Counted from the first letter of the stretch, positions 23,713-55,375 are shown. The stretch is DNA of 64,000 bases from a virus (IMGVR_UViG_3300031996_000004:5931-69930), one strand, 5' to 3'. Numbers and translations: made by a program. Notes: generated from the sequence alone by a model not told the origin.

Positions 23713-23945
23713 CAGAGGCTCTTGCGCATCTTGGGGTTGATGTAGCTCGCCTGCGGCGTGCTCACCTTGCCCTTGGTGCGGTTCATTCTGGCGTTGGGGC
23801 GCAGGATGCCTCGCGCCACCAGCGCCGACAGGTGGCGGGTCGCCTTGGCGACCGCGTTGGGCACAGCATCGCCGGGCTGGTAGGTGGTCCCGTTCTGGAG
23901 CTTGACCTTCCTACCAGCCACGAACGACGCAGGCTTGCGGATCAT
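23712..23945 (-). CDS. Small basic protein downstream of the capsid gene
   Basis: Start MIRKPASF at 23945 overlaps the MCP stop; 77 aa. Confidence 0.6.
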   Translation of the reverse strand: MIRKPASFVAGRKVKLQNGTTYQPGDAVPNAVAKATRHLSALVARGILRPNARMNRTKGKVSTPQASYINPKMRKSL

Positions 23946-24961: not shown

Positions 24962-25372
24962 TCAGACGAACAGCGCGGGCACGAGCTCGTTGGCCCCTGC
25001 CGCCGGCTTGAGGGCGATGAGGCGCTTGCCTCCGGACGGGGTGGCGCCCTTGGCGACCGCCCGGCCGGTGGCGTCGGACACGAGGTCCACCCCAGCAGCG
25101 AAGGCAGCGCCAGCGACGACATTGGTGACGCCGGTGAAGCCGACCGTGGCCGCGGCCCCGGGCGTCTGCGGCTTGTTCTGCAGCACGCCGACAACCACGT
25201 CGCCGGCGGCCGTGGCCAGTCCGACCTGGTGAGAGCCCGTGAGCTTGACCATGGTGTACTGCTTGCCACCGTTCGGCACCGCCGAGCCAGGCTGACCAGG
25301 CACGCCGGTGTAGATGCCCAGCGACGCGTCAGCGTCCAGGCTGATGGACTTGAGGGACTCTTCGTAGCTCAT
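24962..25372 (-). CDS. Capsid decoration/cement protein
   Basis: QYTMVKL...VVGVLQNKP...GVTNVVAGAAFAAGVDLVSDATGRAV pattern; directly upstream of the MCP gene. Confidence 0.8.
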   Translation of the reverse strand: MSYEESLKSISLDADASLGIYTGVPGQPGSAVPNGGKQYTMVKLTGSHQVGLATAAGDVVVGVLQNKPQTPGAAATVGFTGVTNVVAGAAFAAGVDLVSDATGRAVAKGATPSGGKRLIALKPAAGANELVPALFV

Positions 25373-25383
25373 CTGTCAGCTCC

Positions 25384-26508
25384 TCAGCGACGACGCTGCT
25401 CGGCCTCGTACTCGTCGTACGCGGCGGGATTGGCCTCGAACAGAGCCGTGACGGCCTGCTCCTGGGAAAGGGCGCCGGCGGACTTGCCGACCGCCTCACC
25501 GGCGATCGCGTAGACCTGCGCGACGATGTCGGACTCGATGCCGCCGTTGTAGCCGATCTCGTCCATGGCGTACTTGGCGATCTCGCCGTAGCCGGAGAAG
25601 ACGCGGTCCAGAGCGGCGACGTCCTCGGCCGGGAGCACCTGGGAGGCGCGGTAGAGCAGGCCACCGACCTCCTCGGGGTCACCCAGCTCGTAGCCCTTGG
25701 CCAGCTCGGTGAACTCGCCAGCCTCCTGCGCCTCGACGAGGCCAAGGACCATGTCCTCGAGCTCCTCGTTGCGCTTGGCCACGGACTCGAAGTGGTCGAG
25801 TGCCTTGGCGATCACCTCGTCGCGGGCGTCCTCGGTCAGCGCCTTGGACAGGTCCTCGAGCACCGACTCACCCAGCGACTTGCCGAAGCGGTTGTCGGCG
25901 TAGGCGCCGCCACCGGCGCCAGCCGCAGCGGCGCCGCCGTAGCGGATGCCCTTGCGGCCGCCCTCGGGGATGGCGCGGTACTGCATGCCAGCAGCCGTGG
26001 CGCTGTTGCGGGCGCGACGGCCGGCGCGGTTGAGGCGCTCGCGGCCCTCGCGACCGTAGGCGCCTGCCTCCTCACGAGCGTTGCGCACGGCGCCGCGGGC
26101 CTGGATGCCGGCGCGCAGAGCGCGAGAGCGAGCCGCGCCCATGCGCTCGCCGGGCAGGTACCGGCTGGATGCGCCGCTGACCTCGCGGGCGACCGTGGTG
26201 TGCCGAACGGCGCGACGCGCGAGCTGGTCGCGCAGGCCCTTCTCGACACCCTCGTCGTCGTCCTCGAAGTCCTCGCCGTCCTCGGCGTCTCCCTCGACGA
26301 AGACGAGCTCAGTGCCGTCCTCGCCGTAGACGACGTCACCGTGCTCCAGCTCGGCCTCGTCGACCTCGTTCCCCTGAGCATCGAAAATGCTCATTCCGTC
26401 CTCCTGACGTTTTGCGATTGCGACCAAGCCGTGCTGGTTCGCAGGGCGGTCCACGAGGGAGACCTCGTCGATCTCGAGGCCCGAGAGCTTCTTCACCATG
26501 CGCGCCAT
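25384..26508 (-). CDS. Scaffolding protein with internal Arg-rich insert
   Basis: Start MARMVKKL at 26508 (RBS gagg). N-terminal LEIDEVSLVDRPANQHG is typical of XkdF-associated head proteins; acidic helical C-terminus (...AVTALFEANPAAYDEY). Confidence 0.75.
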   Translation of the reverse strand: MARMVKKLSGLEIDEVSLVDRPANQHGLVAIAKRQEDGMSIFDAQGNEVDEAELEHGDVVYGEDGTELVFVEGDAEDGEDFEDDDEGVEKGLRDQLARRAVRHTTVAREVSGASSRYLPGERMGAARSRALRAGIQARGAVRNAREEAGAYGREGRERLNRAGRRARNSATAAGMQYRAIPEGGRKGIRYGGAAAAGAGGGAYADNRFGKSLGESVLEDLSKALTEDARDEVIAKALDHFESVAKRNEELEDMVLGLVEAQEAGEFTELAKGYELGDPEEVGGLLYRASQVLPAEDVAALDRVFSGYGEIAKYAMDEIGYNGGIESDIVAQVYAIAGEAVGKSAGALSQEQAVTALFEANPAAYDEYEAEQRRR

Positions 26509-26569
26509 AGCGTCCTCAGTTTGGATGCTGGTCTGTCTTGTTGGTTGGTACTGCCCCGCGACACGCCGG

Positions 26570-27286
26570 TCAGAGCTTACGCCCGGACCGAGCACCGTCG
26601 GGGATGTTGCTGTTGCGCATCTTGCCGCGGGCGACCCGGACACGCAGCGGGGTCTTGGGAGCCACCGGAACGCGCTTGGGCGCAGCCATTCCGGCGATCA
26701 GGCCGAGGCCACGCTGGACCCCGGTGGCACCGGTCTCGGAGAAGGCCGCAGCCTTGCCGAACGGACCGGAGCGCTGGCCCTTGGGGGTGTGCCGGTAGAC
26801 CTCGAGCTTGGTGGCGTTGCGGCCACCGCCCGAGCCATGGCGCACGTGCGTCAGGGCGTTGCCGTGGCCGACGTGGCCACCGGTGGGGACCAGGGCGCGA
26901 ATCCGGGTGGCGCCGGGCACCGGCAGGGCGACCTTGTAGGCCTTGCCGAACGCCACGACCTCCTCGAAGGGGTTGACCAGGTTCTTCGACATGGCGTTCT
27001 TCCTCTGGTGGTTGCGGTGGATCAGGTAGCCAGTGGTGCCGGCGGCCGCTGCCGCGCCCGCTCCGATGGCGACGTTTCGGCCCAGATGGCGTGCTGTCGG
27101 CTTGGCGACGACCTCGCGAAAGGTCTCACGCGTGGCTGCTGAAGGGCCAGCCGAAGGACGAGTAGCCGGACGAGCAGCTGGTGCCGAGTGGCGCGCTTGC
27201 ATGTCCTCGAGGGAGCCGAAGTCGCGCTGGCTCCTGGGGACGAAGCCACCAGCCGGGCGCGGCTTGCGCCGCTTGCTCTGGGCCAT
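26570..27286 (-). CDS. Basic head-module protein of K-delimited peptide modules
   Basis: 238 aa Arg/Lys-rich; GAGAAAAAGTTGYL helix; AMSK, AFGK and PFGK motifs. Confidence 0.7.
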   Translation of the reverse strand: MAQSKRRKPRPAGGFVPRSQRDFGSLEDMQARHSAPAARPATRPSAGPSAATRETFREVVAKPTARHLGRNVAIGAGAAAAAGTTGYLIHRNHQRKNAMSKNLVNPFEEVVAFGKAYKVALPVPGATRIRALVPTGGHVGHGNALTHVRHGSGGGRNATKLEVYRHTPKGQRSGPFGKAAAFSETGATGVQRGLGLIAGMAAPKRVPVAPKTPLRVRVARGKMRNSNIPDGARSGRKL

Positions 27287-28194
27287 CAGCGGTACGTCCT
27301 TCCCCGGTTGGTGTTGCCGTAGTGGTGCAGCGCGCCTGCAGCGCCGACGGCGGCTGCGCCGCCGCCGAACAAGAGCCCGTTGCGCCGGGAGACGGCGATC
27401 GCCTTTCGGCCGATCTTGCGCTCGACAGTGACGTCCGGCTTGCCGACCTCGGTGCGCAGCTTGGACGCGCGCAGGGCCTTGGTCTCGGCCTGGATGCCTC
27501 GGAAGCCCTTGTGGCCGGCGTAGCCGCCACCGAGCGCGAGTGCGGACTCGCCCATCCCCAGCCTGCGCTGTCGACGGCCCTCGGGGTCATAGCGCCGGTA
27601 GGAGTCAGCCTTGCCGAAGGTGGGCTGCGGTTGCTGGCGGCGCATCCCGCCGGTCGCGACGAGACCGCCGACAGCGGTGCCGCCCACGGCACCGGTGATC
27701 AGCGCGTTGCGCGGCGTACTCGTCGCGGTCTTGATGCCTGAGGCGATCTTGGGCTTGACGAGCGCACCAGCCACCTTGGCGTTGAAGTCGGCCGCCTTGG
27801 CGCCGTTCTTCAGCGCCGACATGCCGATGCCCTTGCGGACGCGACGGTTGCCGTTGAACTCCCAGTTGGAGCCCGTACGACCGCCGTACTCAGGCAAGGC
27901 GCTCTCGATCGGGGCGAAGGACCTCGAGCGCATGGGGGAGATCTTCTGCCCGGAGTTGCTGCGCTCCTGCAGAGTCGTGAACTTCCGCCAGGCGCGCTGG
28001 TAGTGCTGGTGCTCGGATCGCGCACCCGCGTCGGGGTCGCGCGCATACTTCGACCTGGCCTTGGGCGCGGCAGTCTTGCGCGCTGCGCGACTGACGTCGG
28101 CGCCCCAGCCCTTGCCGATGGGTTCGAGCAGCGGGGCGTCCGAGCCGGTCACCCGGCGGCCGCGGGCAGAACCGGCGCCGTAGCGTGCTGCCAT
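27286..28194 (-). CDS. Basic head-module protein of K-delimited peptide modules
   Basis: 302 aa; PIGK and TFGK motifs; helices ALITGAVGGTAVGGLVA and LLFGGGAAAVGAAGAL. Confidence 0.7.
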   Translation of the reverse strand: MAARYGAGSARGRRVTGSDAPLLEPIGKGWGADVSRAARKTAAPKARSKYARDPDAGARSEHQHYQRAWRKFTTLQERSNSGQKISPMRSRSFAPIESALPEYGGRTGSNWEFNGNRRVRKGIGMSALKNGAKAADFNAKVAGALVKPKIASGIKTATSTPRNALITGAVGGTAVGGLVATGGMRRQQPQPTFGKADSYRRYDPEGRRQRRLGMGESALALGGGYAGHKGFRGIQAETKALRASKLRTEVGKPDVTVERKIGRKAIAVSRRNGLLFGGGAAAVGAAGALHHYGNTNRGRTYR

Positions 28195-28634
28195 CAGTAG
28201 GCTCCTGACCGGATGCGGATGTTGACGGGGTGGTAGGACGTCCGGCGGACCGGGTGCCCCTGTGCTACGAGAAGCATGCCAGCCGCGGCAGCCACCTCGG
28301 GACGAATCGAGGATGGGACGCGCCGCACGGCGTCGTCGATGGCCTTGATCTGGCGCAGGTGGCGCTCCCCGGGCGCGGTGCCGCGGGCGAGCACGCCCTG
28401 GGCGGCCTGGGCACGCTGCAGCGCCTCGAGAGCGAACTGGCTGTCCTTGGTGCGGGCCTGCTTGACCCCGCGCGCCAGCGCGGCACCCAGCATCCGAGAG
28501 CGCCCCAGCCCCCAGGCGCCCAACGCCAGCCCGGCCCCGGTCTCCACCGCGCGCACTGGGGAGGTCTGTCGGTCCCGGACGTACAGGCTCTTGGAGAAGG
28601 CGGTGTTGCGTCGGGTGTAGACCAGCTGTCCCAC
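28194..28634 (-). CDS. Basic head-module protein
   Basis: 146 aa, GTG start; AFSK motif; GAGLALGAWGL helix. Confidence 0.65.
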   Translation of the reverse strand: MGQLVYTRRNTAFSKSLYVRDRQTSPVRAVETGAGLALGAWGLGRSRMLGAALARGVKQARTKDSQFALEALQRAQAAQGVLARGTAPGERHLRQIKAIDDAVRRVPSSIRPEVAAAAGMLLVAQGHPVRRTSYHPVNIRIRSGAY

Positions 28635-28635
28635 G

Positions 28636-29817
28636 TCAGTAGCCCATCAGCGAGTCGAGGTCATGGTCCTTGCGCATCCCCTTGCCGTGGATGCTGAACC
28701 CGGTGCGGCCGCCCTTCTTGACCTCGGCCCAGGTGTCGTCGTCGTGGATCTTGAAGCCGACCCACCAACCGCGCGGGAAGTCGTGCGGCAGGCCCATCTT
28801 GGCGATCTTGTCGTCGGTGAAGACGATCGACTCGACCAGGTCGGAGACCTTGTGCGGCGCCTCACCGGCGCGACGGTGCATGTCGCCGCCGACGCGGCTC
28901 TTGTGCACGTAGTCGTAGGCGGCCTTCTCGATGTCGTCGGTGGTGATGTAGTCGCCCTGCCGGTCGATCACCGGGGAGCCATTGAGCTCGGTGACGCTGG
29001 CCCAACCGAAGGCCAGGCGCTGGTCGTCGTCGAGCTTGGAGAACTCCCCGGTCCAGGTCACGTCGACGGTGCCGTCGGCTTTGCCGTAGTAGGCGTCCTC
29101 GAGCGCGGCGCTCTTGGCGTTGCGGCGCGCGGTGTTGGCGCGCCCGACTGCTCCTGCGCCGACTGCGCCAGCGGCCAGTCCAGTGCGTCCCTCGGCCGTC
29201 GTCAGCACCCGGCCTGTGAGCTGTCCGGCGCGCTCTGCGCGGCTCTTGGGCTTGGCAGCCCGGACCACCTCGCCAGGCACGACATCGTGGCTGGCTGGCA
29301 CCAGTTCGCCCATCTGCTTGACGTGGCCGGCGACAACCTTGCCCAGCGCAGGAGTGCTGACCTTGCCGACCTTCTCCTTCTTGCGAGCGAAGGCCTGCCG
29401 GCCAGTGACCGCACTGGAGTTGATGTCACCGGCGACGTTGAGCCCCTGACCTGCGGCAATGAGCCCGGCAGCCACCTTTGCCTTGGTCGGGATGAGCTTG
29501 CCGCCGCCGACCTTGCTGCGGGCGGCCCGGATAGCGTCCTTGGTGGCCAGTACGCCCATGGTGCCGCCAAAGGCATTGGAGGCGAAGGCGGCCTGCGCCT
29601 GGCGGCGCTGTCCGCTGGCGTGCACGTCTGCCTGGTCGGGCCCGGCCTTGATGACCTCGTCCCACACCTCGTCGGCGTCGATCAGGTCGCCGTACAGGGT
29701 CTTGCAGAGCGCGACGAACTCCGGCGTCGCGCCATGACGGGCGATGGCGGAGGGCGAGGCAGTCACGTCAGACATCATCGCGGGTGGGCTCCCATCTAGT
29801 CGGCCAGACACGCTCAC
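28636..29817 (-). CDS. Prohead maturation protease, XkdF-like (S78-type serine peptidase), with long N-terminal extension
   Basis: C-terminal domain DQRLAFGWASV...DRQGDYI..DDIEKAAY...GDMH...LVES...GWWVGFKIHDDDTWAEVKKGGRTGFSIHG. GTGA overlap start at 29817 (alternative ATG at 29778). Confidence 0.85.
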   Translation of the reverse strand: MSVSGRLDGSPPAMMSDVTASPSAIARHGATPEFVALCKTLYGDLIDADEVWDEVIKAGPDQADVHASGQRRQAQAAFASNAFGGTMGVLATKDAIRAARSKVGGGKLIPTKAKVAAGLIAAGQGLNVAGDINSSAVTGRQAFARKKEKVGKVSTPALGKVVAGHVKQMGELVPASHDVVPGEVVRAAKPKSRAERAGQLTGRVLTTAEGRTGLAAGAVGAGAVGRANTARRNAKSAALEDAYYGKADGTVDVTWTGEFSKLDDDQRLAFGWASVTELNGSPVIDRQGDYITTDDIEKAAYDYVHKSRVGGDMHRRAGEAPHKVSDLVESIVFTDDKIAKMGLPHDFPRGWWVGFKIHDDDTWAEVKKGGRTGFSIHGKGMRKDHDLDSLMGY

Positions 29818-32699
29818 GACCGGTTCTGCATACGGTATCGGCGCACCGGAGCGTTCTGGAGGCGGAACTGGTGCATGACGGCGTTGATCGGGGTGGGACT
29901 GTCCGGCAGCGCGGAGAGCACGTCGGTCAGCACTCCGGTGTCGCCATGGCGGATCAGCATCTCGGTGGATCGGTACTTGCCCAGGTCGATCAGCTCGACG
30001 GGGTTGGAGAGGTCGAGGTCGTCGTCCACCTCGACCAGCGCCTGTTCCTGGATCGGGAAGCGGTTGGCGTACAGCACGTAGCCGCCGCCGTTCTCGGCGT
30101 AGTCGATGTGCAGCTGGGCGACGTCGGGGAAGGAGTCGAAGATCTGCCGGATGTGCTCGCCCATAGCGATCTCGTCGGCCTCGGTGCGCAGCGGCCCCTT
30201 GCCGGCGGGCTTGCGCTGCCAGACGTAGCCCTTGGTCGGCTCGCCCTCCCTAGAGCGGATCTCGGCGTCGACGTTGTCGCTCATGCTGACCACGGCTTCA
30301 CTGCCGTCCAGCTCTGTCTTCTTGCGCAGCAGGTGCAACGCCGGGCCGTAGATCGGGATGACGCCGGACTTGTCCGGCTCGGGCAGCTTGGACAGGATCT
30401 CTGCGAACTCCGCCCCGGTCATCAGCCGGTAGCGCCGGCGGTCGTCCAGGACCGGCATCTCCTTGCGCTGTTCCTCGGGCATCGTTGCCACAGGACTGCT
30501 GGCATGCAGGGCCGAGCGAAGCGCCGAGCGCAGCTTGGCCGGCTCTGGACGGGCGCTCAGCGATGCGCTCATCCGAGCAACCGGCGTTGCCGAACGGGTC
30601 ACTGCGCTGGGACGAGCGATGCGCATCTGCCGCTGCTGACGAGGCTGACGGGGCTGACGGGGTGCCACCGCAGGCTTCTCCTTGACCGGCTCAGGCAGCT
30701 CGACTCCAGGCAGCCGGATCGGGGCAATCTGGCTGGTGCGGGTCTCGACCTCCGAGAACCTGCCGCGGGAGTCCCGGTCGTAGCGGTCGCCGCCCATCGC
30801 CTTGCCGAAGCGGCCCGGGAAGATCTTGCCGGTGTTCTCCGTGGTCAGCAGCTCAACTTCGTCCTCGTCGACCGGCTTGAGCACGTAGCGCAGCACGATC
30901 ACCTTGTTCACCGGGTCGTAGAGCTTCAGCGGCTCGGAGCCGACCACGAAGGCCTGGTTTCGGTCGATGTGCACCTGCGGAGAGCGGAAGCCGCCCTCGA
31001 CGCCACCACGCACCTCGTCGGCAACGACGTACTCGTGCACCATCGGCAGGTTGTAGTCGCCGTACTGGTCTCGGGTAGGCACCACTGCCCAGTGCGCGCT
31101 GTCGTCGTAGTAGTCCTGCGCCACCAAGGAGTGCCGGTATGCCTCGTCCTCCAACCGTGGCACCACCTGGCCATCGGCGTTGGTGCTGACGTCGGTGGCC
31201 AGCAGCTCTCGGCGCCGACGCAGCTCGTCATCCAGCGACCCGCTGGTGAGTACGTCATCCGGACCGACCCTGGAGACCAGCGGGTCGACCACGCCGATGG
31301 AGGCGGTGTCTCCCAGCTCAGCCTTGGCCGCGGAAGCCGCCTCACGCAGAGACGCAGCAGACTGGTGGGTGTAGCGCGAGGACCGCTCACCGCGCCCAGA
31401 CGGGTCGTCGGGGTCCATCATCTGCGGACCGTCGTAGGGAATCGCGTCGATAAGCGCGTGCGCGCGCAGCAGCAGCGGCGGGTCACCGATCAGGTTGCCT
31501 TCCACCGGCACCATGGAGCGTCGAGTGGCCATGCCCTCGGGCAGGGTCAGGTGGAAGGTCAGCCACTCCCCGTTCGGGGTGTGCATCATCCCGTACTGGT
31601 TGGGCTCCTCCTTGACCTCGAGCGCCGTGCCAGAGAAGTCCTTGCTGCGCCGGACGGGTCCGGGCGTGTCCTTGGGTACCGCCTGCGAGTCGGCGTTGGC
31701 CGCCTTCAGGTGCGCCTGCGGGCTGGCCAGCACCTGAGCGAGCTTGGCCTGCAGGGCAGGACTGGCATGCAGCGACGCCGACATCGTGGCGCTCTGTTGA
31801 GCGTGCGCCTGCGGCGCGGAGCGCTGCGCTCGAGGTTGCCGCTGCTGGCGCTGGGTGCGCTGCTGGCGAGGCTTGCGCGCTACTGGTGGGGCTGCCGGCT
31901 GGTCGGCCACCTTGGGGGCGCCGCCGATGCCTAACCGCTGGCGTAACCGCTCCAGCGGCGACTGCTCCTTGACAGGCTCGGGCAGCTGGATGCCGGGGAT
32001 CTGGATGGATGAGTCGCGGCCCTCGCGCACAGGCGGCCCTGCGTGCGGCGAGGCATGCACGAAGCGGCCAGTGGTTGCATCCCGGGGGTGCTCGCGCTCC
32101 TCCCAGCCCTCCGAGGAGTCCCCCAGCTCGCGGGCGTGCCCGGTGGGCGACTTGGAGACCGTCTCCTTGATCCCGGCCGACTCCTGCTCGACGAGCTTGG
32201 AGACGTAGCCCAGCAAGGCGCGGTCAGCGGCGTCGGTCAGCACCGCAGGGTTCACTCGCGGGTCGGCGGCCAGCGAGGTGTACTTGCCGAGCTCCTTGGC
32301 CGGCACGCCGAACACCGCGCCAGCACGCTGGGCAGCCAGCGGCGGCGCGACGCCCTTGGAGACGCACGTGCGGTACAGCGACAGCGCGCTGGTCTCGGCG
32401 TCATCGAACACGTCGCGCAGCAGCAGCCCGGCGTAGGTCGGCTCGAGAGCCTTGCTCACGGTGTCCACAGCCGGGCCGGCTACCGCCGCCCGGCACCGGG
32501 CCAAGGCGTCCAGCAGGCCCATCTCGGATGGCACCGCTCCCTTGGCCACCGCCTCGCACGCGGCCGCCCCAGCTCGATGGACCGCCAGCAACGCGCTGCC
32601 CAGGTCACCAGCCGCGTCCCCGCCGGGCTCGAGCAAGGCGAGCACCACCTGGTCCGGCTCGACGGTGGCGCGCTGGGGCGCCCACCACCGCTGGGTCAC
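29814..32699 (-). CDS. Large head-module protein (961 aa) with two related modules
   Basis: Five VxK motifs at the N-terminus; two RDxxGRF motifs; duplicated LPEPVKE + Q/R-rich linker. Confidence 0.75.
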   Translation of the reverse strand: MTQRWWAPQRATVEPDQVVLALLEPGGDAAGDLGSALLAVHRAGAAACEAVAKGAVPSEMGLLDALARCRAAVAGPAVDTVSKALEPTYAGLLLRDVFDDAETSALSLYRTCVSKGVAPPLAAQRAGAVFGVPAKELGKYTSLAADPRVNPAVLTDAADRALLGYVSKLVEQESAGIKETVSKSPTGHARELGDSSEGWEEREHPRDATTGRFVHASPHAGPPVREGRDSSIQIPGIQLPEPVKEQSPLERLRQRLGIGGAPKVADQPAAPPVARKPRQQRTQRQQRQPRAQRSAPQAHAQQSATMSASLHASPALQAKLAQVLASPQAHLKAANADSQAVPKDTPGPVRRSKDFSGTALEVKEEPNQYGMMHTPNGEWLTFHLTLPEGMATRRSMVPVEGNLIGDPPLLLRAHALIDAIPYDGPQMMDPDDPSGRGERSSRYTHQSAASLREAASAAKAELGDTASIGVVDPLVSRVGPDDVLTSGSLDDELRRRRELLATDVSTNADGQVVPRLEDEAYRHSLVAQDYYDDSAHWAVVPTRDQYGDYNLPMVHEYVVADEVRGGVEGGFRSPQVHIDRNQAFVVGSEPLKLYDPVNKVIVLRYVLKPVDEDEVELLTTENTGKIFPGRFGKAMGGDRYDRDSRGRFSEVETRTSQIAPIRLPGVELPEPVKEKPAVAPRQPRQPRQQRQMRIARPSAVTRSATPVARMSASLSARPEPAKLRSALRSALHASSPVATMPEEQRKEMPVLDDRRRYRLMTGAEFAEILSKLPEPDKSGVIPIYGPALHLLRKKTELDGSEAVVSMSDNVDAEIRSREGEPTKGYVWQRKPAGKGPLRTEADEIAMGEHIRQIFDSFPDVAQLHIDYAENGGGYVLYANRFPIQEQALVEVDDDLDLSNPVELIDLGKYRSTEMLIRHGDTGVLTDVLSALPDSPTPINAVMHQFRLQNAPVRRYRMQNRS

Positions 32700-33115
32700 T
32701 GGCCGATCTCTCGGCGGGCAGGGTCGATCACGTGCCGCACGATAGCGGGAGGCTGGATCTTGGCGTCGACCTCACGCATCGCATCGAACACCTCCTGCGC
32801 CTCGGGGACCCGGTAGCCGGTGGCGTACCGGCCAGACTTGTACTTGTCGAGTATCCGGTTGATGTCGAGCATCGTCTTGGGCAACAGCAGGTCGTTGAAG
32901 GACAGGTCCTGGCCACGGTCGATCTGCTTGGCCAACTGCGGGCTCAGCGCGACCGCGGCAATGCCGAGGTCGTGTCCGGCCTGCTCGAGCTGCTTGGGCG
33001 TGGGCCAGTCGGGCATGATCTGGCCACGCTGCGCGAGCTTGCCGAGCGCCGCAGCAGCACGGTGCACGGGCTCGATGAGAGCCCGGTCGATGTAGAGGTT
33101 CGCCTGGTTCTCCAC
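32696..33115 (-). CDS. Hypothetical head-module protein
   Basis: 139 aa; its stop overlaps the next GTG. Confidence 0.6.
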   Translation of the reverse strand: MENQANLYIDRALIEPVHRAAAALGKLAQRGQIMPDWPTPKQLEQAGHDLGIAAVALSPQLAKQIDRGQDLSFNDLLLPKTMLDINRILDKYKSGRYATGYRVPEAQEVFDAMREVDAKIQPPAIVRHVIDPARREIGQ

Positions 33116-33147
33116 CGCGTCGCCCAGCGGCGACGCCGGTGGAACTG

Positions 33148-36100
33148 CTAGCTCGCCAGTGACTCGAGGTACTTGCGCACCATTGCCTTGGTCTGCGGGC
33201 TCTGCGCGCTGAACACGGGCTTCAGGCTGCCGCGGCTCAGCGACTTCCCGACCGGCTGATCCGGCCCCTGCGGGGCCTGGTCTTTTCCCGGGCCGCCAGT
33301 CTGGAGCTCCAGCGCCTGCGCTGCCTCCACGACGTCGAAGGCCTTCAGGAACGCCCAGGCACGCTGCATCTGGTGCAGCTGCGCCTTGGCGGCCGGGTCC
33401 TGGCCCTGGTTGCGGTAGTTGGTCACAGCGCGGCGCACCAGGTCGCCTTGCGAGCGCGCCTGGCTGAGCGCGGAGACAGCCTGCACGAACATCGGCTCCT
33501 GCTGCTCCATGTTCGACAGGAACTGGTTGAGCTTCTCCGGGGTGTTGAGCACGATGATGTCCGCGAACGGCTGCGGCTTGGGGTCCTCACGGTCCGGCAG
33601 CGCGTTGTCGGGGTCTGGCGCCGGCTCGGCGTAGGGGTGCGCGAGGTCGATCAGACGCATCATGTCGTCGACCGCCTGGGTCACCTGCGGCTCCTGGTGG
33701 GCCGCACCGAGCTGCTCGAGCATCCCCGGCGCAGCGTGAGCGTAGGACTCCAGCCCCTGCTTGATGGCGCGCCGGTCGTCGTCGGTGGCCTCAGTGGCCA
33801 GCCACTTGGCCAGCCCGGCCGACTTGCCGTGCTTGTTGTAGGCCCACTTCAGGTAGAGCGGGCCACCGATGTTGCGCGCCGCCTCGTTGTCGTAGCTGTC
33901 CCCGATCGGCTCGCCGAAGTCCATCGGGCCGATCATGTTCAGCGCCTTGTAGGCGCTGTCGGCCAGGGCGTCCTGGAAGCCAGGTGCAGAGGAGGCCAAG
34001 TCTGTCAGCCTGACCTCGGGCTTGGCCTGCTGGCGACCCTGCTCAGCAGTGCGCTGCACAGGCTGCTGGCCGCTCTCGCGAGCCGGCTTGCCCTGCTCGC
34101 CCTCGGCCTCCGGTTGCTCACCACGGCGTGCACCCTGGTCGAAGGGGGTCAGCCGGTCGGGCCGGACGTACCCCTTGTCGGGCCCAGCGAAGGTCGGGTG
34201 GTCGCCGCGCGGCAGGCCGCGCTGTTCGTTCCACTGCGGCAGCGGGCGCCAGTCGGCGCGCCGGATGTAGTAGGGGAACTCCTGCTTGAGCGCCTTGAGC
34301 GCGTCGGCGTAGCCCGGGCCGTCCAGCCGGTACATGCGGTAGGCCGACTCGCCCGCCTCCTGGCGGACCCGGCCCATCATCTCCCGGTGCAGGTCGCCAC
34401 GCTGAGAGGGGCTGGCGCCCCTCCAGTCCGGCAGGTCCTCCAGCCGGGCCATGGCCTCGGCCTCGATCTCCTGCTCGTCCAGACCGACGCTGGCCTCGAG
34501 CTGGCGGCGCTTGAGCTTGGCGTCGTAGTTGCGCTCGCCCTGCTCGCTGTCCCAGCCGGCTGCCTGGTAGGCCTCGCGGCGCAACCGGGACTTCTCGGCG
34601 GAGGGCAGGTCCTCGCGGACCTGCTTGCCGCTGGCGAGCACGCCGAGCAGCGCCTCGTAGCGGCCGACCATCTTGCGGGCCTTGTCGCTGTACCGCCGCC
34701 CACCGCGCAGGTTGGGGTCGAACTCGACGGTGAACACCCCGGAGTGGGAGACCACCTCGATCTGGCGGGCGCCGGACATCAGGCCGGCGTAGATGTCCTC
34801 GGTGGTCGGGCCACCGGACAGCCGGGTGCGCACGTACTGGCCGCCGCGCAGCTGGCCGAGGTTCTTCAGGTCGAAGGGCAGGTAGTGGTCGCCCTTGAAG
34901 CCCTGCGCCTGCACCACCACGTGGCCGTCGGCGTTGATGATGACGCCCTCGGACGGCGGGATCTCGTTGCTGGCGATCGAGAGCATCGCCACCTTCTCGT
35001 CGGGCAGGTTGCGCGACAGGATCGCCGCCGCGATGTCCCCGCTGGCGTACAGCTCCTGCTGGTCGCGAGTCAGGTTGCGACCGGCGTAGAAGGAGGTGAT
35101 GTGGCTGGCCGGGTCAGCCTCTCGGGCGTTGGCACGCCTGTGGATGTTTGCCTCGATGCGCTCGCGCTCCTCGCTGGCCCTGGGTGCGCTGGCCAGCGCA
35201 GCGAGCTGCTCGTTGGCGTAGCTCACCGACGAGGAGAGCTCCTCTGTGGGGCGACGCTCGGTGCCGCGGTAGCGGTAGGCGGTGCGCCGGATGCCAGGGC
35301 CGAGCACCTTCTCGGCTTCCGGGCCAAGGTCGCCGACCAGCTGGGCGAGCCCGCCGATCATGGACGCAGTGCTGCCAGGTGCGCTGACGGCGTTGAGCGC
35401 CTGCCCGGTCAGCTTCAGTCGGCGCATGCCCTGCATGTCGCCGCTGCGGTTCCACTCCCGGCCGGCCTGGTCCCAGTCACCGGGGTCAGGAGCCTGTCCG
35501 GCGAACCGGCCAAGGGCCTCCAGCGCCTGCGGGTCGGAGGTGAAGGCGGCTGCGGCGTTGAGCGCCGAGCGCTGCTTGAGCCCGTCACCGCGCCCGAGCT
35601 GACCGCGCTGGATGGAGATGCCGGACAGCGTCGCGTCGGGGTAGCGCTCCTGCTCCTCGATCAGCCGGTCTGGAGTCATCTCCCCGGCGATCATCGTGGT
35701 CTGCTCCTCGTCGGTACCGGTCACCACGAGCTTGCCGGTGGCCGGGTCGACCTCGGAGTTGCGCCAGTGCAGCGTCAGCGGGGTCTTCTCGTCGACCAGC
35801 TTGGCCCGCTGCCACTGCTGTGCGATCGCCGCACCCTGGGTGGCGTGCGCCTGCAGTCGCAGGTTCTCGTCCTTGGCCGGCGAGGGGCGCACGTTGCGCC
35901 GCGCGAACTGGCCCTTCTCGTCACGCGGGTGGCGCTGGTTGAAGATGGCCAGCGCGTTGCCGACCAGGCCCTTGGACACATAGGCGTCAATGATCGCCAG
36001 CCCCTGGGCATAGGGCAGGTCGTCCGGGACCTCCTCGCCGGACAGCGCCTTGCCGACGTGGGTACGCAGCAGCGCGGCCCGCGCCTTCTCTGCACGCTTG

Positions 36101-36267
36101 GCCATCATCACCGTGGCGGCCTTCTCGAGCACCTCACGGTGCTCGTCGATCTGGTCGCACAGGGACTCGTACAGCCCCAGGCGCACCAGCTCGATCGCCG
36201 CGCTCTCGTCGACGGCGGCGACCTTCATGACCGTGGCGAGGACGCCCTCGACCGGGACCAGACTCAT
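33148..36267 (-). CDS. Large head-module protein (1039 aa) with HPRDxxGxF motif and a degenerate JAB-like segment
   Basis: YVSKG...FNQRHPRDEKGQF; EGVIINADG...GGPTTEDI...VVSHSG; C-terminal PVGKS. Confidence 0.75.
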   Translation of the reverse strand: MSLVPVEGVLATVMKVAAVDESAAIELVRLGLYESLCDQIDEHREVLEKAATVMMAKRAEKARAALLRTHVGKALSGEEVPDDLPYAQGLAIIDAYVSKGLVGNALAIFNQRHPRDEKGQFARRNVRPSPAKDENLRLQAHATQGAAIAQQWQRAKLVDEKTPLTLHWRNSEVDPATGKLVVTGTDEEQTTMIAGEMTPDRLIEEQERYPDATLSGISIQRGQLGRGDGLKQRSALNAAAAFTSDPQALEALGRFAGQAPDPGDWDQAGREWNRSGDMQGMRRLKLTGQALNAVSAPGSTASMIGGLAQLVGDLGPEAEKVLGPGIRRTAYRYRGTERRPTEELSSSVSYANEQLAALASAPRASEERERIEANIHRRANAREADPASHITSFYAGRNLTRDQQELYASGDIAAAILSRNLPDEKVAMLSIASNEIPPSEGVIINADGHVVVQAQGFKGDHYLPFDLKNLGQLRGGQYVRTRLSGGPTTEDIYAGLMSGARQIEVVSHSGVFTVEFDPNLRGGRRYSDKARKMVGRYEALLGVLASGKQVREDLPSAEKSRLRREAYQAAGWDSEQGERNYDAKLKRRQLEASVGLDEQEIEAEAMARLEDLPDWRGASPSQRGDLHREMMGRVRQEAGESAYRMYRLDGPGYADALKALKQEFPYYIRRADWRPLPQWNEQRGLPRGDHPTFAGPDKGYVRPDRLTPFDQGARRGEQPEAEGEQGKPARESGQQPVQRTAEQGRQQAKPEVRLTDLASSAPGFQDALADSAYKALNMIGPMDFGEPIGDSYDNEAARNIGGPLYLKWAYNKHGKSAGLAKWLATEATDDDRRAIKQGLESYAHAAPGMLEQLGAAHQEPQVTQAVDDMMRLIDLAHPYAEPAPDPDNALPDREDPKPQPFADIIVLNTPEKLNQFLSNMEQQEPMFVQAVSALSQARSQGDLVRRAVTNYRNQGQDPAAKAQLHQMQRAWAFLKAFDVVEAAQALELQTGGPGKDQAPQGPDQPVGKSLSRGSLKPVFSAQSPQTKAMVRKYLESLAS

Positions 36268-36761
36268 CAGTGCCCTCCTGGGGTGTATGCCCTCATCCGC
36301 TGCAGCGCACTGGCTGCGACCCCGCCGGGGGAACTGGCGTACGAAGCGCGGCGCGAGCGTGCGTGCTCACCATAGAGCTCCGAGGCGCCACCGAACACGC
36401 CGCTGGCCAGACCAGCCGTCTCGAAGGCGCGGTGCGGGACGCGACGCAGCCCGGGCGCGCGCCGGGCCAGCAGCCCAGCGCCGGCCAGGGTAGCCCCGGC
36501 CAGCCCGACGTTGCGCCCGACCTCGGCGGCGTCCGCCCGGCGCTTCCACTTCTCGGCCTTGCGACCACCGGAGGCGATGTAGCGGGCCTCGTAGGCAGCC
36601 ATCCGCTGGTTGCGGTCCAGCGTCTTGGGCAGCGGGCCGCGGGTGTCGTAGCGCCGTGCGAGCTCGTCGGCGCGCCGGTCGCTCATGGTGGTGTCGAGCT
36701 TGGCCACCGTGGCGTCACCGCGGCGCACTGCCGAGCCGGTCATGCCCAGTCGTCCAGCCAT
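36267..36761 (-). CDS. Basic head-module protein with hydrophobic helices
   Basis: 164 aa; TVAK-LDTTMS; VGLAGATLAGAGLLA. Confidence 0.65.
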   Translation of the reverse strand: MAGRLGMTGSAVRRGDATVAKLDTTMSDRRADELARRYDTRGPLPKTLDRNQRMAAYEARYIASGGRKAEKWKRRADAAEVGRNVGLAGATLAGAGLLARRAPGLRRVPHRAFETAGLASGVFGGASELYGEHARSRRASYASSPGGVAASALQRMRAYTPGGH

Positions 36762-38776
36762 CAGCTCAGCCCTCCGCGCACCGTGGTCGTGCGGATCATC
36801 CCGCTCGGGTATCGAGTCTGACGGATGAAGCCACGTCGCATGGACGGGGCGCGCCGCATGCCGGTGGGACGCAGGAGCGCCTTGCCGACCAGCGCCTGCT
36901 CGCGAGCTCGCAGGTCGCGACGCTGCAGGTGCGCGCCCTCCAGACCGTTGAGCGCCGCTGCGCCACCGGCGATGGTGCCGGTGGCGAAGGAGGCGGTGCG
37001 CAGCTTGCCGGCCCGCGGGGTGTGCCGGACCTTGGGCAGCAGCGAGCCGCCCAGCAGCCCGGTGGCCGCGATCGAGCCGGTCGAGGTGGTCGCGGCGATG
37101 GCAGCCGCGCGACGCTTGCGCCGGATCTGCTCGAGCTCCTCGCGCCGGGACATGCCGCTGCTCTGGTCGGCCTTGGCGAACGCCTTGGAGCCACGCCGGG
37201 CGCCCTGGTTGTGCTGGCGACGGTAGCGGTCGTCCCGGCTCATGATGTGCCCGTACATGGCCTGCTGGCCGGCCTGACCGATCACCGAGCCACCGACCAG
37301 CGCGCCGACCGCGGCCGGACCCTTGTGTGCGGCGATCAGTCGCCCTGCCCGGGTAGCTGCCGCACGAGCACCGGTGGCCCTGGCAGCACCAGCCACCCGC
37401 GGCGCCCGACGCTCGAGCTGCGCCCCTGCGCGCTGGCCCAGACCGGGGCCACTCGAGGGCTTGATCCCGGCTCGAGCCTTGACGTTGGTCTTGGCCCCCT
37501 CGATCTTGTTGTTGAGCGCGTTGGCGCGCTGCTCGAAGCCTACGAACCGGTGCGCCAGGGCGGCAGCTCCCACCGCGCCGGCAGCGTTGCCGGCCAGCCC
37601 AGCGCCGGCGCCAGCGGCGTAGTTCTGCGCCGCGGTGCGGCGACGGTACGGCTCAGGGGACAGCCGGGCCGCCTGAGCCGCCTGGGTGAAGTCGCCGACC
37701 ACCGGCAGGCCGCCGGAGGCGGTCACCCGAGCACGGCGCTCGCCGCGGCTCATGGAGGCGCCCGGGTCGTCCTTGCGGATCGCGCCCTGTCCGGAGGCGA
37801 CCTCGCGGACCAGCTTGTCCTTGTCGTTCAGGCTCGAGACGTCGTAGGAGACGGCACGCAGCGTCTCGGCCGCCTTGGTGCGGCCGGTGGCCACCAGTTT
37901 GCCGGTGACCCGCTTGGCGTTGGGCAGGTGTCGGTCGATCACTGGCCGCGGCCTGGGCTTCGCCCGCCGCGGGGCGTAGGGCTCGACACGGTCGGCCACC
38001 CGGGACAGGTTGGTGGTCCAGTGCGCCCCGACCACCGCGCCAGCGGTGTTAGCCGCGGCCCGCGGGCTCATCTTGCCGACCATCTCCTGGCGCAGCGCGT
38101 GCGGGGACAGCGTGGTCTTGCCCGGGCGCCCTTCGACGACGTGGGCGCTGCTGGACGGGCGCGCCGGCTTGGCCCGCTTGCGCCGGACTCCGGTGGGAGT
38201 GACCTCGTACTGGCCGTGACTGGCCCGGTTGGTCAGCCGGGACTGCAGCGGCAGCGCGGCCGAGCCAGCGACGATGCCCACCCCGCGAGCGATCCCCGAG
38301 CGTGCCGAGCCGCCGAGCTTGGTCCGCCCCACTAGCCGGTGGGTGATCCCGCCGGCGGCCGAGCCCACCGCGGCCCCGGCCAGGTAGTTGCCGAGCACCA
38401 GCTTGGCCGGCGGCTTCTCGGCGATGGAGGCGTTGCGCTCGTGGAAGGACTCCTTGGCGCCGGCCAGTCCCTCGCCCAGGAAGGAGCGCTTGCGGTCATC
38501 GGCCTTGGACGTCGTCTCCTTGCGGCGCATCAGCCGCGAGGTGCCGACGGCGGCCGGCGGCACCGAGACCAGCCCGAGCGCGGCGGAGGCAGCCCAGCGA
38601 CCGCGTCCGGCTACCTTTCCCCGCCGCAGGTAGACCCGCTCGTGGCCGAAGGGGAACTTCGGGCGCGCCTGGCCGGCGTAGGCACGCTCGAGCCCGGAGT
38701 GCGCCAGTGCCCCACTGGCGGCCACTCCGCCCAGACCGAGCGTGGCGGTGGCGGCGTCCTGGCGGCGGTCGCTCAC
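36761..38776 (-). CDS. Basic polyprotein-like head-module protein (671 aa, about six modules)
   Basis: Modules split at TTSK, MVGK, AIRK, AFAK and LVGK; Arg-rich, most with Gly/Ala helices. Confidence 0.7.
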   Translation of the reverse strand: MSDRRQDAATATLGLGGVAASGALAHSGLERAYAGQARPKFPFGHERVYLRRGKVAGRGRWAASAALGLVSVPPAAVGTSRLMRRKETTSKADDRKRSFLGEGLAGAKESFHERNASIAEKPPAKLVLGNYLAGAAVGSAAGGITHRLVGRTKLGGSARSGIARGVGIVAGSAALPLQSRLTNRASHGQYEVTPTGVRRKRAKPARPSSSAHVVEGRPGKTTLSPHALRQEMVGKMSPRAAANTAGAVVGAHWTTNLSRVADRVEPYAPRRAKPRPRPVIDRHLPNAKRVTGKLVATGRTKAAETLRAVSYDVSSLNDKDKLVREVASGQGAIRKDDPGASMSRGERRARVTASGGLPVVGDFTQAAQAARLSPEPYRRRTAAQNYAAGAGAGLAGNAAGAVGAAALAHRFVGFEQRANALNNKIEGAKTNVKARAGIKPSSGPGLGQRAGAQLERRAPRVAGAARATGARAAATRAGRLIAAHKGPAAVGALVGGSVIGQAGQQAMYGHIMSRDDRYRRQHNQGARRGSKAFAKADQSSGMSRREELEQIRRKRRAAAIAATTSTGSIAATGLLGGSLLPKVRHTPRAGKLRTASFATGTIAGGAAALNGLEGAHLQRRDLRAREQALVGKALLRPTGMRRAPSMRRGFIRQTRYPSGMIRTTTVRGGLS

Positions 38777-39057
38777 GTGGGGTTCCTCTCGAGGTTGTAG
38801 GCCAGCGTGCGCACCACCGCGCTGGCCGGCTGCCTGGTGGCGGCCGCGTGGTGCTCGAGCATGGCGGTGAACCAGCTCGCGGACGCGCTGAACAGCACCG
38901 CCCAGGCGTCAGCCGGGCTCTGGTGCTTCTGCGCGGCGTCGGCCATGTAGCAGTTGAGCAGCAGTGCGGCGTCGCTCTCGTTGCCGCCGATCTTGGCCGT
39001 CGCGATGCCCAGCACGGTGCGGGTGGCGTCAGGCAGTAGCGCCTCGGCGGCGTTCAT
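38773..39057 (-). CDS. Hypothetical protein downstream of the portal gene
   Basis: MNAAEALLPD... start at 39057, ATGA overlap with the portal stop; 94 aa. Confidence 0.6.
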   Translation of the reverse strand: MNAAEALLPDATRTVLGIATAKIGGNESDAALLLNCYMADAAQKHQSPADAWAVLFSASASWFTAMLEHHAAATRQPASAVVRTLAYNLERNPT

Positions 39058-40751
39058 CGTCGCTGGCCACCTTGGCTGCCGCCCTGCTGCTGGCCACCGC
39101 CCTGCTGCTGGCCACCGCCCTGCTGCTGGCCGATGGCCTGGAACATCTGCTGGGCCTGGTTGAGCTGGTGGTCGCTGTCTGCGCGCTGCTCCTGGGCCTG
39201 GCCGAACTGCATCTGCTGCTGGCCCTGCTGCATCTGCTGCTGCTGCTGGGCGTACTCCAGAGTGGGCTTGCCGGCGGCGAGCTGCTGCTCGGCCGCCATG
39301 GCCTGGGCCAGCTGGGAGCGCGCGGCCAGGTAGCGGGTCTGGGTCTCGGCGAACCGGGCTGCCTCGTCCAGCCGGGCCAGCCGGCGGTTGGCCGCCTGCG
39401 CGTCCTCGCCGAGCTCGGGCAGCCCCGCGGCGTGGCGCAGGTAGCGCTCCATCTCGGTGTCCGGGCCCCAGTTGAAGCCCAGCCCCGCGGTGGCGGTCAG
39501 GAACTGGGACAGCTGGGTGAGGTCGGGGGCGTCGACGTTGCCCGGCTGAAGGGTCGGCAGCGTGGACGGCTTCCAGCCGTTGGCCGCGAACAGCCGCGGG
39601 ATGGCGTGCCGGTTGAACACCTCGGCGATGGACAGCGCCACCGCGTTCAGCGCGTCCCGGAAGATGCCGGTCTTGTCGACGTGCAGGTTGTAGGTGCCGG
39701 TGGAGCCCTGGTGGCCGACCATGATGAAGTCGGCCAGCACGGTCATCAGCTGGCGCTGCTCGTAGCGCTGGATCAGCTCGTTGGTGGAGAACTGCCGCTG
39801 CCCGCCGGAGCCCATCAGCTCGAACTTGAACATCGGCTGCTTGGTGTCCGGGTCGTAGGCGGTTGGGAAGACCAGCCCCTCCTGCTCGTTGCGCCGGATG
39901 GAGCGGACCATCTTCTTCATGGCCTCGACCATCTTGGCCTGGTCGGTGCCCTTGCCGGCGCGCAGGTACTCGCTCGGCACGCTGACCATGGGCAGACCGG
40001 CCAGGTCGCGCTCGACGCCCACGCTCTCGAACTCCTCGAGGCGCTTCTTGTAGTACCAGGGCCGGTAGGAGTTGCGCAGCAGCGAGCGCCCCTCGGGGTT
40101 GCCCTTGTGGTGGCCGAAGCGGAACAGCAGCGAGCGGTCGATCGGGATGGTGCGGGTCTTGTAGTCCGGCGGGGAGAGCTGGACCATGGCGCGCACGTCG
40201 CCGGTGTCGTCGAAGACCCAGCGCTGCAGGGTCTCCTGAGCGCGGATCGGCATCTTGCGCCAGCCGATCAGGCCGTCGCTGTGCTTGGAGCGGTGCCTGC
40301 CATCGCGCTGCCAGGGGCCCATCCGGCGCTTGTAGACGATCTCGTGCCAGGACCAGCCGTACTGCAGACAGGACAGGATCTCCATGATCGTGTCGTCCCA
40401 CGAGCTGCTCATGTCGTCCATTGACGTCTCGACCAGCTTGGCCGCGTTGGCGTCGTCGCGGCTCTTGCCGCCGGGCACCACCGGCCAGTCGATGCCGCGC
40501 AGCAACTGGGTGAAGGTGAACAGCAGCGCCCCGGTGATCGGGTCGTTGTCGCCCATCTCGCGGAAGACCTGGACGCCCTTGCGCCCCTTGAGCTGGGGCA
40601 GGAACTCCTCGTCGAGGTAGCCGGCCGAGCGCTTGAGGCCGGTGACGCCGATCTCGTCCATCCACAGCGGACCACTGGTCAGCTGCTGGACCTCGGCTAC
40701 GGCGTCCCGGTCAGCCGCCTCGGTGGGGCTGGGGTACCTGGTTCCGGCCAC
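39054..40751 (-). CDS. Portal protein (Mu gp29/DUF935-like)
   Basis: EIGVTGLK...YGWSWHEIVYKR...HHKGNPEGRSLLRNSYRPWYYKKRLEEFESVGVERDLAGLP...AEVFNRHAIPRL. Confidence 0.9.
   Translation of the reverse strand: MAGTRYPSPTEAADRDAVAEVQQLTSGPLWMDEIGVTGLKRSAGYLDEEFLPQLKGRKGVQVFREMGDNDPITGALLFTFTQLLRGIDWPVVPGGKSRDDANAAKLVETSMDDMSSSWDDTIMEILSCLQYGWSWHEIVYKRRMGPWQRDGRHRSKHSDGLIGWRKMPIRAQETLQRWVFDDTGDVRAMVQLSPPDYKTRTIPIDRSLLFRFGHHKGNPEGRSLLRNSYRPWYYKKRLEEFESVGVERDLAGLPMVSVPSEYLRAGKGTDQAKMVEAMKKMVRSIRRNEQEGLVFPTAYDPDTKQPMFKFELMGSGGQRQFSTNELIQRYEQRQLMTVLADFIMVGHQGSTGTYNLHVDKTGIFRDALNAVALSIAEVFNRHAIPRLFAANGWKPSTLPTLQPGNVDAPDLTQLSQFLTATAGLGFNWGPDTEMERYLRHAAGLPELGEDAQAANRRLARLDEAARFAETQTRYLAARSQLAQAMAAEQQLAAGKPTLEYAQQQQQMQQGQQQMQFGQAQEQRADSDHQLNQAQQMFQAIGQQQGGGQQQGGGQQQGGSQGGQRR
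39081..39131 (-). repeat. 18-bp tandem repeat encoding QQQGGG in the portal C-terminus
   Basis: gccctgctgctggccacc x2 plus a partial copy. Confidence 0.8.
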
Positions 40752-55341: not shown

Positions 55342-55375
55342 TCGTTAGGCCGTGTTCCGGACGGAGGAGGGCACA

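Follow-up and report, generated by a model that had tools for sequence, protein, structure and literature searches.

The DNA analysed here is a 64-kb window (IMGVR_UViG_3300031996_000004:5931-69930; "the window" denotes this whole stretch) of a viral genome, in which a block of about 13 kb on the minus strand (25384-38776), the module, lies between the portal gene and the genes for a decoration-like protein and the major capsid protein. The question raised by this locus is whether the module encodes precursors that a head maturation protease cuts after lysine and leaves, in part, inside the virion. The source record is a linear IMG/VR virus of 69.9 kb with an estimated completeness of 89%, and the G+C content of the window is 64-73%. 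The phage is uncultured and tailed, has a genome of about 70 kb and is known from metagenomes. A preliminary description, made from the sequence alone, had counted nine genes in the module and quoted 15 lysine sites in them, after which an XkdF-like protease was proposed to cut. We found ten open reading frames (ORFs) instead, of 671, 164, 1039, 139, 961, 393, 146, 302, 238 and 374/419 amino acids (aa), labelled in this order gA, gB, gC, gD, gE, gP, gF, gG, gH and gS, the last taken as 374 aa. All 15 quoted sites were present in the genes given for them when the coordinates of the lysine codons were checked.

We arrive at a model to which we assign a probability of about 0.6 on sequence evidence: an XkdF/HK97-class prohead protease would cut after lysine, destroy the scaffold and long propeptides, and release basic, glycine-rich peptides and two large proteins inside the head. 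That the motif lysines are protease sites we hold to be somewhat more probable than the model as a whole.

Enrichment and conservation of a lysine motif

Copies of the motif [VIFLYM][SAG]K were counted in all ORFs and compared with per-protein shuffles. The ten module proteins contain 41 copies where 14.0 +/- 3.5 are expected, a number reached in none of 500 shuffles, and 28 copies where 6.0 are expected when the residue after the lysine (P1') is A, S, G, L or M. The other 56 ORFs hold 52 copies against 36.3 expected. Enrichment of the module over the rest of the proteome, which the preliminary description had noticed without counting, is borne out. Its remark that such motifs are far fewer in tail and replication proteins holds for the replication proteins and the other tail proteins, which are at background, and fails for the tape measure protein, which alone has 19 sites versus 8.3 expected; the remaining non-module ORFs together have 33 versus about 28. 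We read the excess in the tape measure as an effect of helical composition.

Since the motif had been defined after seeing the data, we also performed an unbiased scan of all residue-class contexts around lysine. The context hydrophobic-small-K-small ranked first of all lysine contexts (21 copies versus 4.7 expected, z 7.9), whereas the hydrophobic-small context around arginine was without enrichment (38 versus 32.2). Chance is rejected as the cause of the motif. The excess is uneven and falls mostly on gS (8 versus 0.9) and gE (9 versus 2.2).

Conservation was counted over five related metagenomic contigs (L004-L008) that we fetched; the module is complete in each, with its gene order unchanged, and their cargo proteins show 32-55% identity. 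Motif lysines are selectively kept, in line with the conserved positions that the preliminary description had proposed to look for: 18 of 41 are invariant across the relatives as opposed to 5 of 157 other lysines (odds ratio 24, Fisher p 2e-10), figures to be taken as descriptive rather than exact, as the relatives are non-independent samples and inflate the statistics on conservation and on the portal depletion below. The strict form [VIFL]-[SAG]-K first given for the motif is too narrow; the relatives can have E, T, N, R or V at P2, the position before the lysine. The two motif sites of gD (139 aa, 32696..33115, minus strand), a poorly conserved protein with 30% identity to its L007 counterpart, are not conserved in the alignment.

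Among the neighbouring head proteins, the capsid and decoration proteins have motif counts at expectation. Six portals taken together contain a single site against 10.1 expected (as few in 0 of 1000 shuffles), and the portal of the window has none. This depletion would be simply explained if cleavable sites are selected against in a protein of the head interior that has to survive.

Sites at gene junctions and beside the protease domain

The positions of the sites are more telling than their number. The protein gB (164 aa, 36267..36761, minus strand) consists of a 21-residue leader ending in TVAK↓ (the arrow marks the proposed cut) fused to a conserved basic C-terminal module that starts with LDTTMS. 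In its relatives, 250-600 extra and mutually unrelated residues stand between the common leader and the common C-terminal module; FGK↓A or VAK↓A comes after the leader, and the lysine ahead of the [LV][DE]TTMS module is invariant. By eye, the inserted parts of two of these relatives hold strings reminiscent of known enzymes, each without Pfam confirmation: a JAB-like HNHP...S.PD in the L004 protein (5162-6622) and an HExxH-like HERAH in the L005 protein (3980-6298).

The same arrangement is found in the next small proteins. The basic protein gF (146 aa, 28194..28634, minus strand) has a 15-residue leader ending in AFSK↓ and corresponds to the C-terminal 136 residues of proteins of 341-354 aa in L004-L006. 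At the junction, the long forms read VSK↓, MAK↓ and VGK↓ opposite the AFSK↓ of gF (residue 15), with the lysine kept in all, and the gF counterpart in the distant contig L014 has an 11-residue leader ending in VFAK↓. The basic protein gG (302 aa, 27286..28194, minus strand) carries a 28-residue leader ending in PIGK↓ and a TFGK↓ (K195) before a conserved C-terminal Gly-rich module; its start aligns just after VSK↓A or VHK↓A of the upstream-extended L005 and L006 proteins, and all five proteins compared retain the lysine that precedes the conserved YDPE module. The third, gH (238 aa, basic; 26570..27286, minus strand), has an invariant VVAFGK↓AY (K115) and PFGK↓A (K178). In L004-L006 it starts 13-15 residues before the invariant VVAFGK↓AY, ahead of which the proteins of the window and L007 have a further segment of about 100 residues. 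Motif-terminated leaders, 8, 11 and 22 residues long, are also present in L012 and L014, both distant contigs.

Together with gA (671 aa, 36761..38776, minus strand), which has a net charge of +79, is hydrophobic and Gly/Ala-rich in six stretches and includes K125, K535 and K632 among its conserved lysine sites, the proteins gB, gF, gG and gH contain 12-15% Arg and have net charges of +16 to +79. The Arg-rich peptides with Gly/Ala helices of the preliminary description are, in composition, found in these five proteins. A reading of gA as repeats of the gB module was rejected (BLASTP E at least 0.6).

The Gly/Ala-rich segments of these five proteins, weakly hydrophobic and flanked by Arg, are what one would also look for in late proteins directed at the membrane or host (lysis, exclusion, takeover) that merely sit in the head operon and are absent from the virion, and the endolysin gene also lies within the packaging and head block (41220-42188). 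We consider this very improbable. Most module neighbours share stop and start codons or overlap by 4 nt, a tight coupling that runs from the portal to the scaffold, and gene order is kept across very distant relatives. The protease and scaffold carry the same kind of segments and sites. In addition, the hydrophobicity of the segments is only moderate (about 1.2-1.7), low for true membrane spans.

The protease itself is gP (393 aa, 28636..29817, minus strand). Its N-terminal region, with an invariant K57 and Gly/Ala stretches, is followed by an invariant YYGK↓ (K246) and by an XkdF-type serine protease domain (28675-29046), which matches Pfam Peptidase_S78_2 (XkdF) over residues 258-381 with 72.3 bits (cut-off 24) and an E-value of 4.7e-20; gP also matches PHROG head maturation protease families. 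Among eight gP homologues, down to 42% identity, GGDMH (H314) and GFSIHG (S375) are invariant, and by comparison with the S78 pattern GMSVGF of HK97 gp4 we assume that they hold the candidate catalytic His and Ser. An invariant [YL]-x-K↓[AR]D lies some 12 residues ahead of the protease domain. A sequence search of the protease domain against the PDB returned nothing below E 0.17. The best PHROG match of the XkdF domain is PHROG 1530, labelled 'DNA methyltransferase', as are gp71 of phage RDJL Phi 1 (L010, 8853-9251) and genes of Rhizobium phages; these labels look like mis-annotations of XkdF protease domains.

The scaffold-like protein gS (374 aa, ATG at 26508; 25384..26508, minus strand) carries in its N-terminal part the strand motif EVSLVDRPANQ, then AIAK↓ (K33). 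A variable insert of acidic/basic character separates these from RFGK↓SLGE (K210), after which the C-terminal half is helical, conserved and bears a further six motif sites. Of its eight sites, seven are invariant, and an invariant K↓S-[LF]-G-[ED] lies between the variable N-terminal and the conserved helical halves. In every relative, the distant L012-L014 among them, the scaffold holds 6-9 motif sites where about one is expected, a density in keeping with a scaffold that must be destroyed. The maturation site of HK97 gp5, TFNK103↓S104LGS (K103/S104), is cut by an S78 protease (PMC10275583). This F-N-K↓S-L-G cut, made by a protease of the same clan, is close to the invariant gS site.

The first 33 residues of gS (26410-26508, minus strand; EIDEVSLVDRPANQHG...AIAK↓R) also resemble the last strand region of HK97-type S78 proteases. 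The likeness pairs ...LEIDEVSLVDRPANQHG..AIAK↓R of gS with ...LREISVCTFPANEQAG..AAMK↓S of HK97 gp4 (residues 130-160; REISVCTFPANEQAG...AAMK↓S), and it is weak, with E 0.077 against the end of the domain in Pfam Peptidase_S78 and E 0.075 by hhalign. Residues 248-302 of gP align with residues 11-54 of HK97 gp4 (E 0.014), and the C-terminus of each of the eight gP homologues lies 8-18 residues past GFSIHG. RDJL Phi 1 has in adjacent genes a 132-aa protein with only the XkdF domain and then a scaffold (gp72) that starts with the strand (9253-9350). The S78-like strand at the gS N-terminus might serve to tether protease and scaffold to each other, or else complete a split fold.

The motif may still have a purpose other than proteolysis. 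It could be a structural signature, of helix capping or of amphipathic repeats, serve in docking to the scaffold or capsid, or supply a lysine for cross-linking or modification; linker composition would then account for its place at junctions. The observations that speak for this also weigh against cleavage. Part of the motif signal is probably a general property of helical proteins, because the tape measure, helical and outside the head, is enriched too. Many scaffold sites lie inside the conserved helical domain, and the invariant lysines there weigh less because that half is well conserved overall. Among relatives P2 is loose, and only the lysine at P1 and a mostly small P1' are constant. 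In the papers searched we found no report on the cleavage specificity of XkdF-type proteases. The excess is weak in gA (3 versus 2.3) and gC (5 versus 2.7), where only individual sites are conserved, and the statistics are inflated by relatedness. A helix signature, however, leaves unexplained why lysine and not arginine is enriched. Lysines are kept exactly at points of gene splitting or fusion, or 8-28 residues from an N-terminus; an invariant site stands ahead of the protease domain; the portals are depleted tenfold; and the K↓SLG site of HK97 is matched. We therefore regard a non-proteolytic motif as unlikely.

The preliminary proposal of cleavage after lysine is strengthened by six independent sequence tests, namely the lysine-specific enrichment, selective conservation, the junction and leader positions, the site before the protease domain, the portal depletion and the HK97 precedent, while cleavage itself, packaging and ejection are steps that we infer.

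The large proteins gC and gE and the distribution of the module

The two largest proteins are laid out alike. In gC (1039 aa, 33148..36267, minus strand) a 99-residue N-terminal region with VGK↓ and YVSK↓ is followed by RDEKGQF (35902-35925), a conserved core, PVGK↓ (K1008) and a 31-residue tail. In gE (961 aa, 29814..32699, minus strand) a 183-residue N-terminal region with six motif sites precedes two linkers of the type K/RDxxGRF/Arg-Gln-rich, each before a different domain; its RD motifs lie at 32061-32084 and 30753-30776, and its invariant lysines are K83, K115, K168 and K183 in the N-terminal region and K633 in the second linker. Thus RDxxG[RQ]F occurs three times in gC and gE, 18 residues after K99 of gC and 27 and 7 residues after K183 and K633 of gE, each time followed by an Arg/Gln-rich linker.

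A profile search with gC found 591 clusters (50% identity) at E <= 0.001, 485 of them at E <= 1e-30, and all ten cluster representatives looked up come from metagenomes or uncultured phages. The module is not confined to a single small siphovirus; it is the hallmark of a large lineage that is so far metagenome-only. In 45 of 45 diverse gC-family members, RDxxGRF follows a [V/I/F]-x-K at a distance of 8-27 residues (median 15), and P1' is A, G or S in 37 of them; these lysines were chosen by a hydrophobic P3, which is fixed by construction, and by a rough estimate a random 37-residue stretch holds hydrophobic-x-K about one third of the time. A similar site lies 25-45 residues from the C-terminus in 39 of the 45, followed by a conserved basic tail of the RRRxVVH..P.S type. 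In gC, this tail (33151-33246, minus strand) may be a removed C-terminal targeting peptide.

Conserved motif sites avoid the gC core (residues 330-680; 34228-35280, minus strand). An AlphaFold model of this core from 46 sequences reached a pLDDT of 93 and a pTM of 0.85. Two models compared with the PDB by Foldseek and VIA-align gave no significant match, and a look-up in the ESM Atlas gave no usable match. For the central alpha/beta part, VIA-align listed weak likenesses, below the level that is meaningful for the tool, to JAMM1 (Z 5.3, 109 aligned, rmsd 4.0), the DddB deaminase (Z 5.3, 81 aligned, rmsd 2.4) and Cap3 (Z 4.9); the deaminase rows in Foldseek had E of at least 0.1. The core has RTR where JAB has HxH, and the metal ligands of the JAB/MPN and deaminase folds are missing.

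Proteins of the MuF/SPP1 gp7 type ride inside the head, stay in virions and can carry variable C-terminal payloads. Like them, the large proteins are encoded just after the portal; the difference is that gC and gE have no Pfam match to Phage_Mu_F at E <= 0.1 and show no domain with an HxxCRC end. In L013, the gene at the gE position encodes a true MuF protein (31.4 bits, cut-off 29.6) with an HPNCRC end; after this end comes the linker seen in gC and gE, here as SLFK↓SL...HPRGEGGRF. When gC and gE were compared with this protein by hhalign, only the 22-residue RDxxGRF linker aligned. Since the K/RDxxGRF linker is present in gC, in gE and in the L013 MuF protein, it can be regarded as a portable cassette. 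A paper on MuF polymorphic toxins makes no mention of an RDxxGRF-type linker or of cleavage (PMC5576092), and in the literature searched nothing was found on RDxxGRF-type strings. We tentatively suggest, at odds clearly below even, that a large siphovirus-type lineage known from metagenomes (about 590 gC clusters) matures internal head proteins with a lysine-specific XkdF protease by way of a portable hydrophobic-x-K↓small-RDxxGRF cassette, with a spacer of 8-27 residues and a basic linker, which joins targeting propeptides to interchangeable payloads and is common to MuF proteins.

There were nine homologues of gE in a large protein collection, none in an IMG/VR scan, and a word-based search with its linker region returned close relatives only. 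No tblastn match to gE, the gC core or the L013 MuF-linker region was found in 50,697 phage records, and neither gC nor gE had a relative in the INPHARED phage collection. The closest cultured relatives (Arthrobacter Laroye and Ottawa, Microbacterium ValentiniPuff and Roseobacter RDJL Phi 1) were considered as carriers of the module and rejected; they share the portal or the capsid and are without it.

Within the window, the structural genes are on the minus strand in the order amidase endolysin, portal, 93-aa ORF, the ten module ORFs, decoration-like protein, capsid, head-tail genes, tail tube and tape measure. The portal (565 aa, 39054..40751) forms the upstream boundary of the module and was assigned from tblastn matches to annotated portals, its L004 and L005 counterparts being Pfam Portal_Mu. 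Adjoining it is the small conserved ORF (93 aa, 38773..39054), with homologues of 96-98 aa at the same place in L004, L005, L008 and L014. Downstream lie the decoration-like protein (136 aa, 24962..25372), which precedes the capsid gene in all relatives and is named by position only, and the boundary formed by the major capsid protein (332 aa, 23945..24943), of the lambda gpE type and without a delta domain, which was assigned by tblastn to annotated major capsid proteins and whose L012 counterpart matches Phage_cap_E. The tail tube protein belongs to Phage_TTP_16, and the tape measure (2031 aa, 14093-20188) has an SLT transglycosylase domain near its C-terminus. Since both are present and no sheath gene was found among the window genes scanned, a siphovirus-type virion is indicated. 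An actinobacterial host is suggested by the high G+C content and by the portal, which is like those of actinophages.

In the distant contigs L012, L013 and L014 the genes follow one another as in the window: portal, gC, gE-position gene, XkdF protease, scaffold, decoration, capsid. L012 and L014 have in addition a gA-like gene and small proteins; L013 is without gA, the small proteins and the 96-aa ORF. L012 has an AAA ATPase gene (13459-14262) between gC and the gE-position gene. In the window, the endolysin (Amidase_2 and PG_binding_1) lies on the minus strand between the terminase region and the portal, and the plus strand encodes a DnaE-type Pol III alpha subunit (PHP, DNA_pol3_alpha, finger and HHH_6 domains; 60467-63109) and a DnaB-like helicase (55352-56650).

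Proposed maturation of head-interior proteins

In the proposed pathway, the XkdF/HK97-class protease, as the C-terminal domain of gP, would enter the assembling procapsid along with a separate scaffold and some eight other proteins, and would cut after lysine at hydrophobic, small or variable, K↓small. The scaffold would be cut at 7-8 sites and then expelled, and the protease domain would be released from its own N-terminal region at YYGK↓. Leaders of 8-28 residues would be trimmed off the small basic proteins, and the N-terminal regions of the two proteins of about 1000 aa (99 and 183 residues) would be removed and fragmented; both leaders and N-terminal regions are probably capsid-targeting signals. 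Precursors of several modules would be split at their junctions. Retained with the DNA in the head would be Arg-rich peptides with Gly/Ala-rich hydrophobic helices and the two large proteins, whose mature N-termini would lie 7-27 residues before RDxxGRF and the Arg/Gln-rich linker. Roles after ejection could include DNA condensation, penetration of the envelope and host takeover. The dozens of internal virion peptides expected in the preliminary description are likely an overcount, as many sites belong to the scaffold or to the N-terminal regions of 99 and 183 residues, which by analogy with T4 and SPN3US are likely degraded propeptides and not cargo.

The sites could also be real and serve assembly only, the proteins building or sizing the procapsid interior like T4 gp22, gp67 and gp68 and being degraded and expelled before or during packaging, so that nothing would be delivered to the host. 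The scaffold and the N-terminal regions of gC and gE do have the highest site density. Two results that favour such a core also tell against cargo. Pfam and PHROG scans of the ten module proteins and ten proteins of relatives found no family except the protease, and the cargo proteins of the window and six proteins of relatives had no Pfam domain and no recognisable effector domain. The nearest cultured relatives of the capsid have genomes of 62-69 kb without the module, and because relatives of similar genome size lack it, room in the head for much internal protein is unproven. Against a transient core, gC 330-680, gE 190-630 and gE 640-961 are without conserved internal sites and would survive. 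Furthermore, the L013 gene at the gE position encodes a MuF protein, of a family that stays in virions, and the variable extra domains between lysine sites in relatives fit cargo better than structure. To devote 13 kb, 19% of the genome, to a transient core would also be unusual. Overall we judge an assembly-only module to be improbable, if slightly less so than a motif without proteolysis, and delivery of mature cargo to be plausible from the sequence.

The closest parallel is phage T4, in which the head protease gp21 cuts many head-interior proteins at a short motif, trims N-terminal capsid-targeting leaders and destroys the scaffold core (gp22), while basic internal proteins (IPI-III, Alt) are left in the head and ejected with the DNA. 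Here, likewise, one head protease accompanies a short motif that is enriched and conserved in head-interior proteins. The systems differ in the protease (XkdF/S78 class with Lys at P1, as against gp21 class with Glu), in the genome (about 70 kb and siphovirus-type, as against a 170-kb myovirus) and in the precursors, which here include multi-module proteins and two substrates of about 1000 aa. With S78_2 as the sole protease domain found and Lys as the conserved residue, the module may work like the T4/phiKZ system without being a member of it by descent. In the giant phage SPN3US, mass spectrometry showed N-terminal propeptides that are either short (20-24 residues) or long (111-254), the long ones cut several times, and self-cleavage of the protease (PMC10052503). 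The leaders of 8-28 residues, the multi-site regions of 99 and 183 residues and the site adjoining the protease domain resemble this pattern of phiKZ gp175 and SPN3US gp245. Those phages, however, have T4-like Glu-specific proteases, T=27 heads and more than 40 MDa of internal protein, whereas the genome here is one quarter to one third that size, protease class and site are different, and processing is read from sequence.

To our knowledge, the HK97 protease processes only the capsid protein and itself, and HK97 is without a separate scaffold and without internal cargo. In the module, by contrast, the capsid protein lacks a delta domain and the predicted substrates are ten separate gene products. 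The polyvalent proteins and the Dar system of P1 involve large multi-domain, head-packaged proteins that are proteolytically processed and whose domains are shuffled between relatives (PMC5512222). Large head proteins, predicted processing and shuffled domains are common to both; the polyvalent proteins have known effector domains and often a self-processing Zn-peptidase domain, whereas none was detected here and the proposed enzyme is the prohead protease. Compared with T4, phiKZ/SPN3US and P1, the new elements are the protease class, the P1 residue, the mid-sized siphovirus, the multi-module precursors and the K/RDxxGRF cassette common to a MuF protein.

Internal and ejection proteins matured by a protease have so far been documented mainly in T4, phiKZ-like giants and P1. 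If such maturation holds for a lineage of 70-kb siphoviruses with an HK97-class, lysine-specific protease, packaged cargo would be far commoner than model systems suggest. The K/RDxxGRF cassette would then be a sequence rule that predicts mature cargo boundaries in metagenomic phages and a natural tag by which foreign proteins could be loaded into capsids. Should the portable-cassette reading be true, it would give a general rule for the loading and release of MuF-type and other head cargo in mid-sized phages. As virion proteomics based on trypsin is blind to lysine-specific maturation sites, such systems may have been overlooked in phages already studied.

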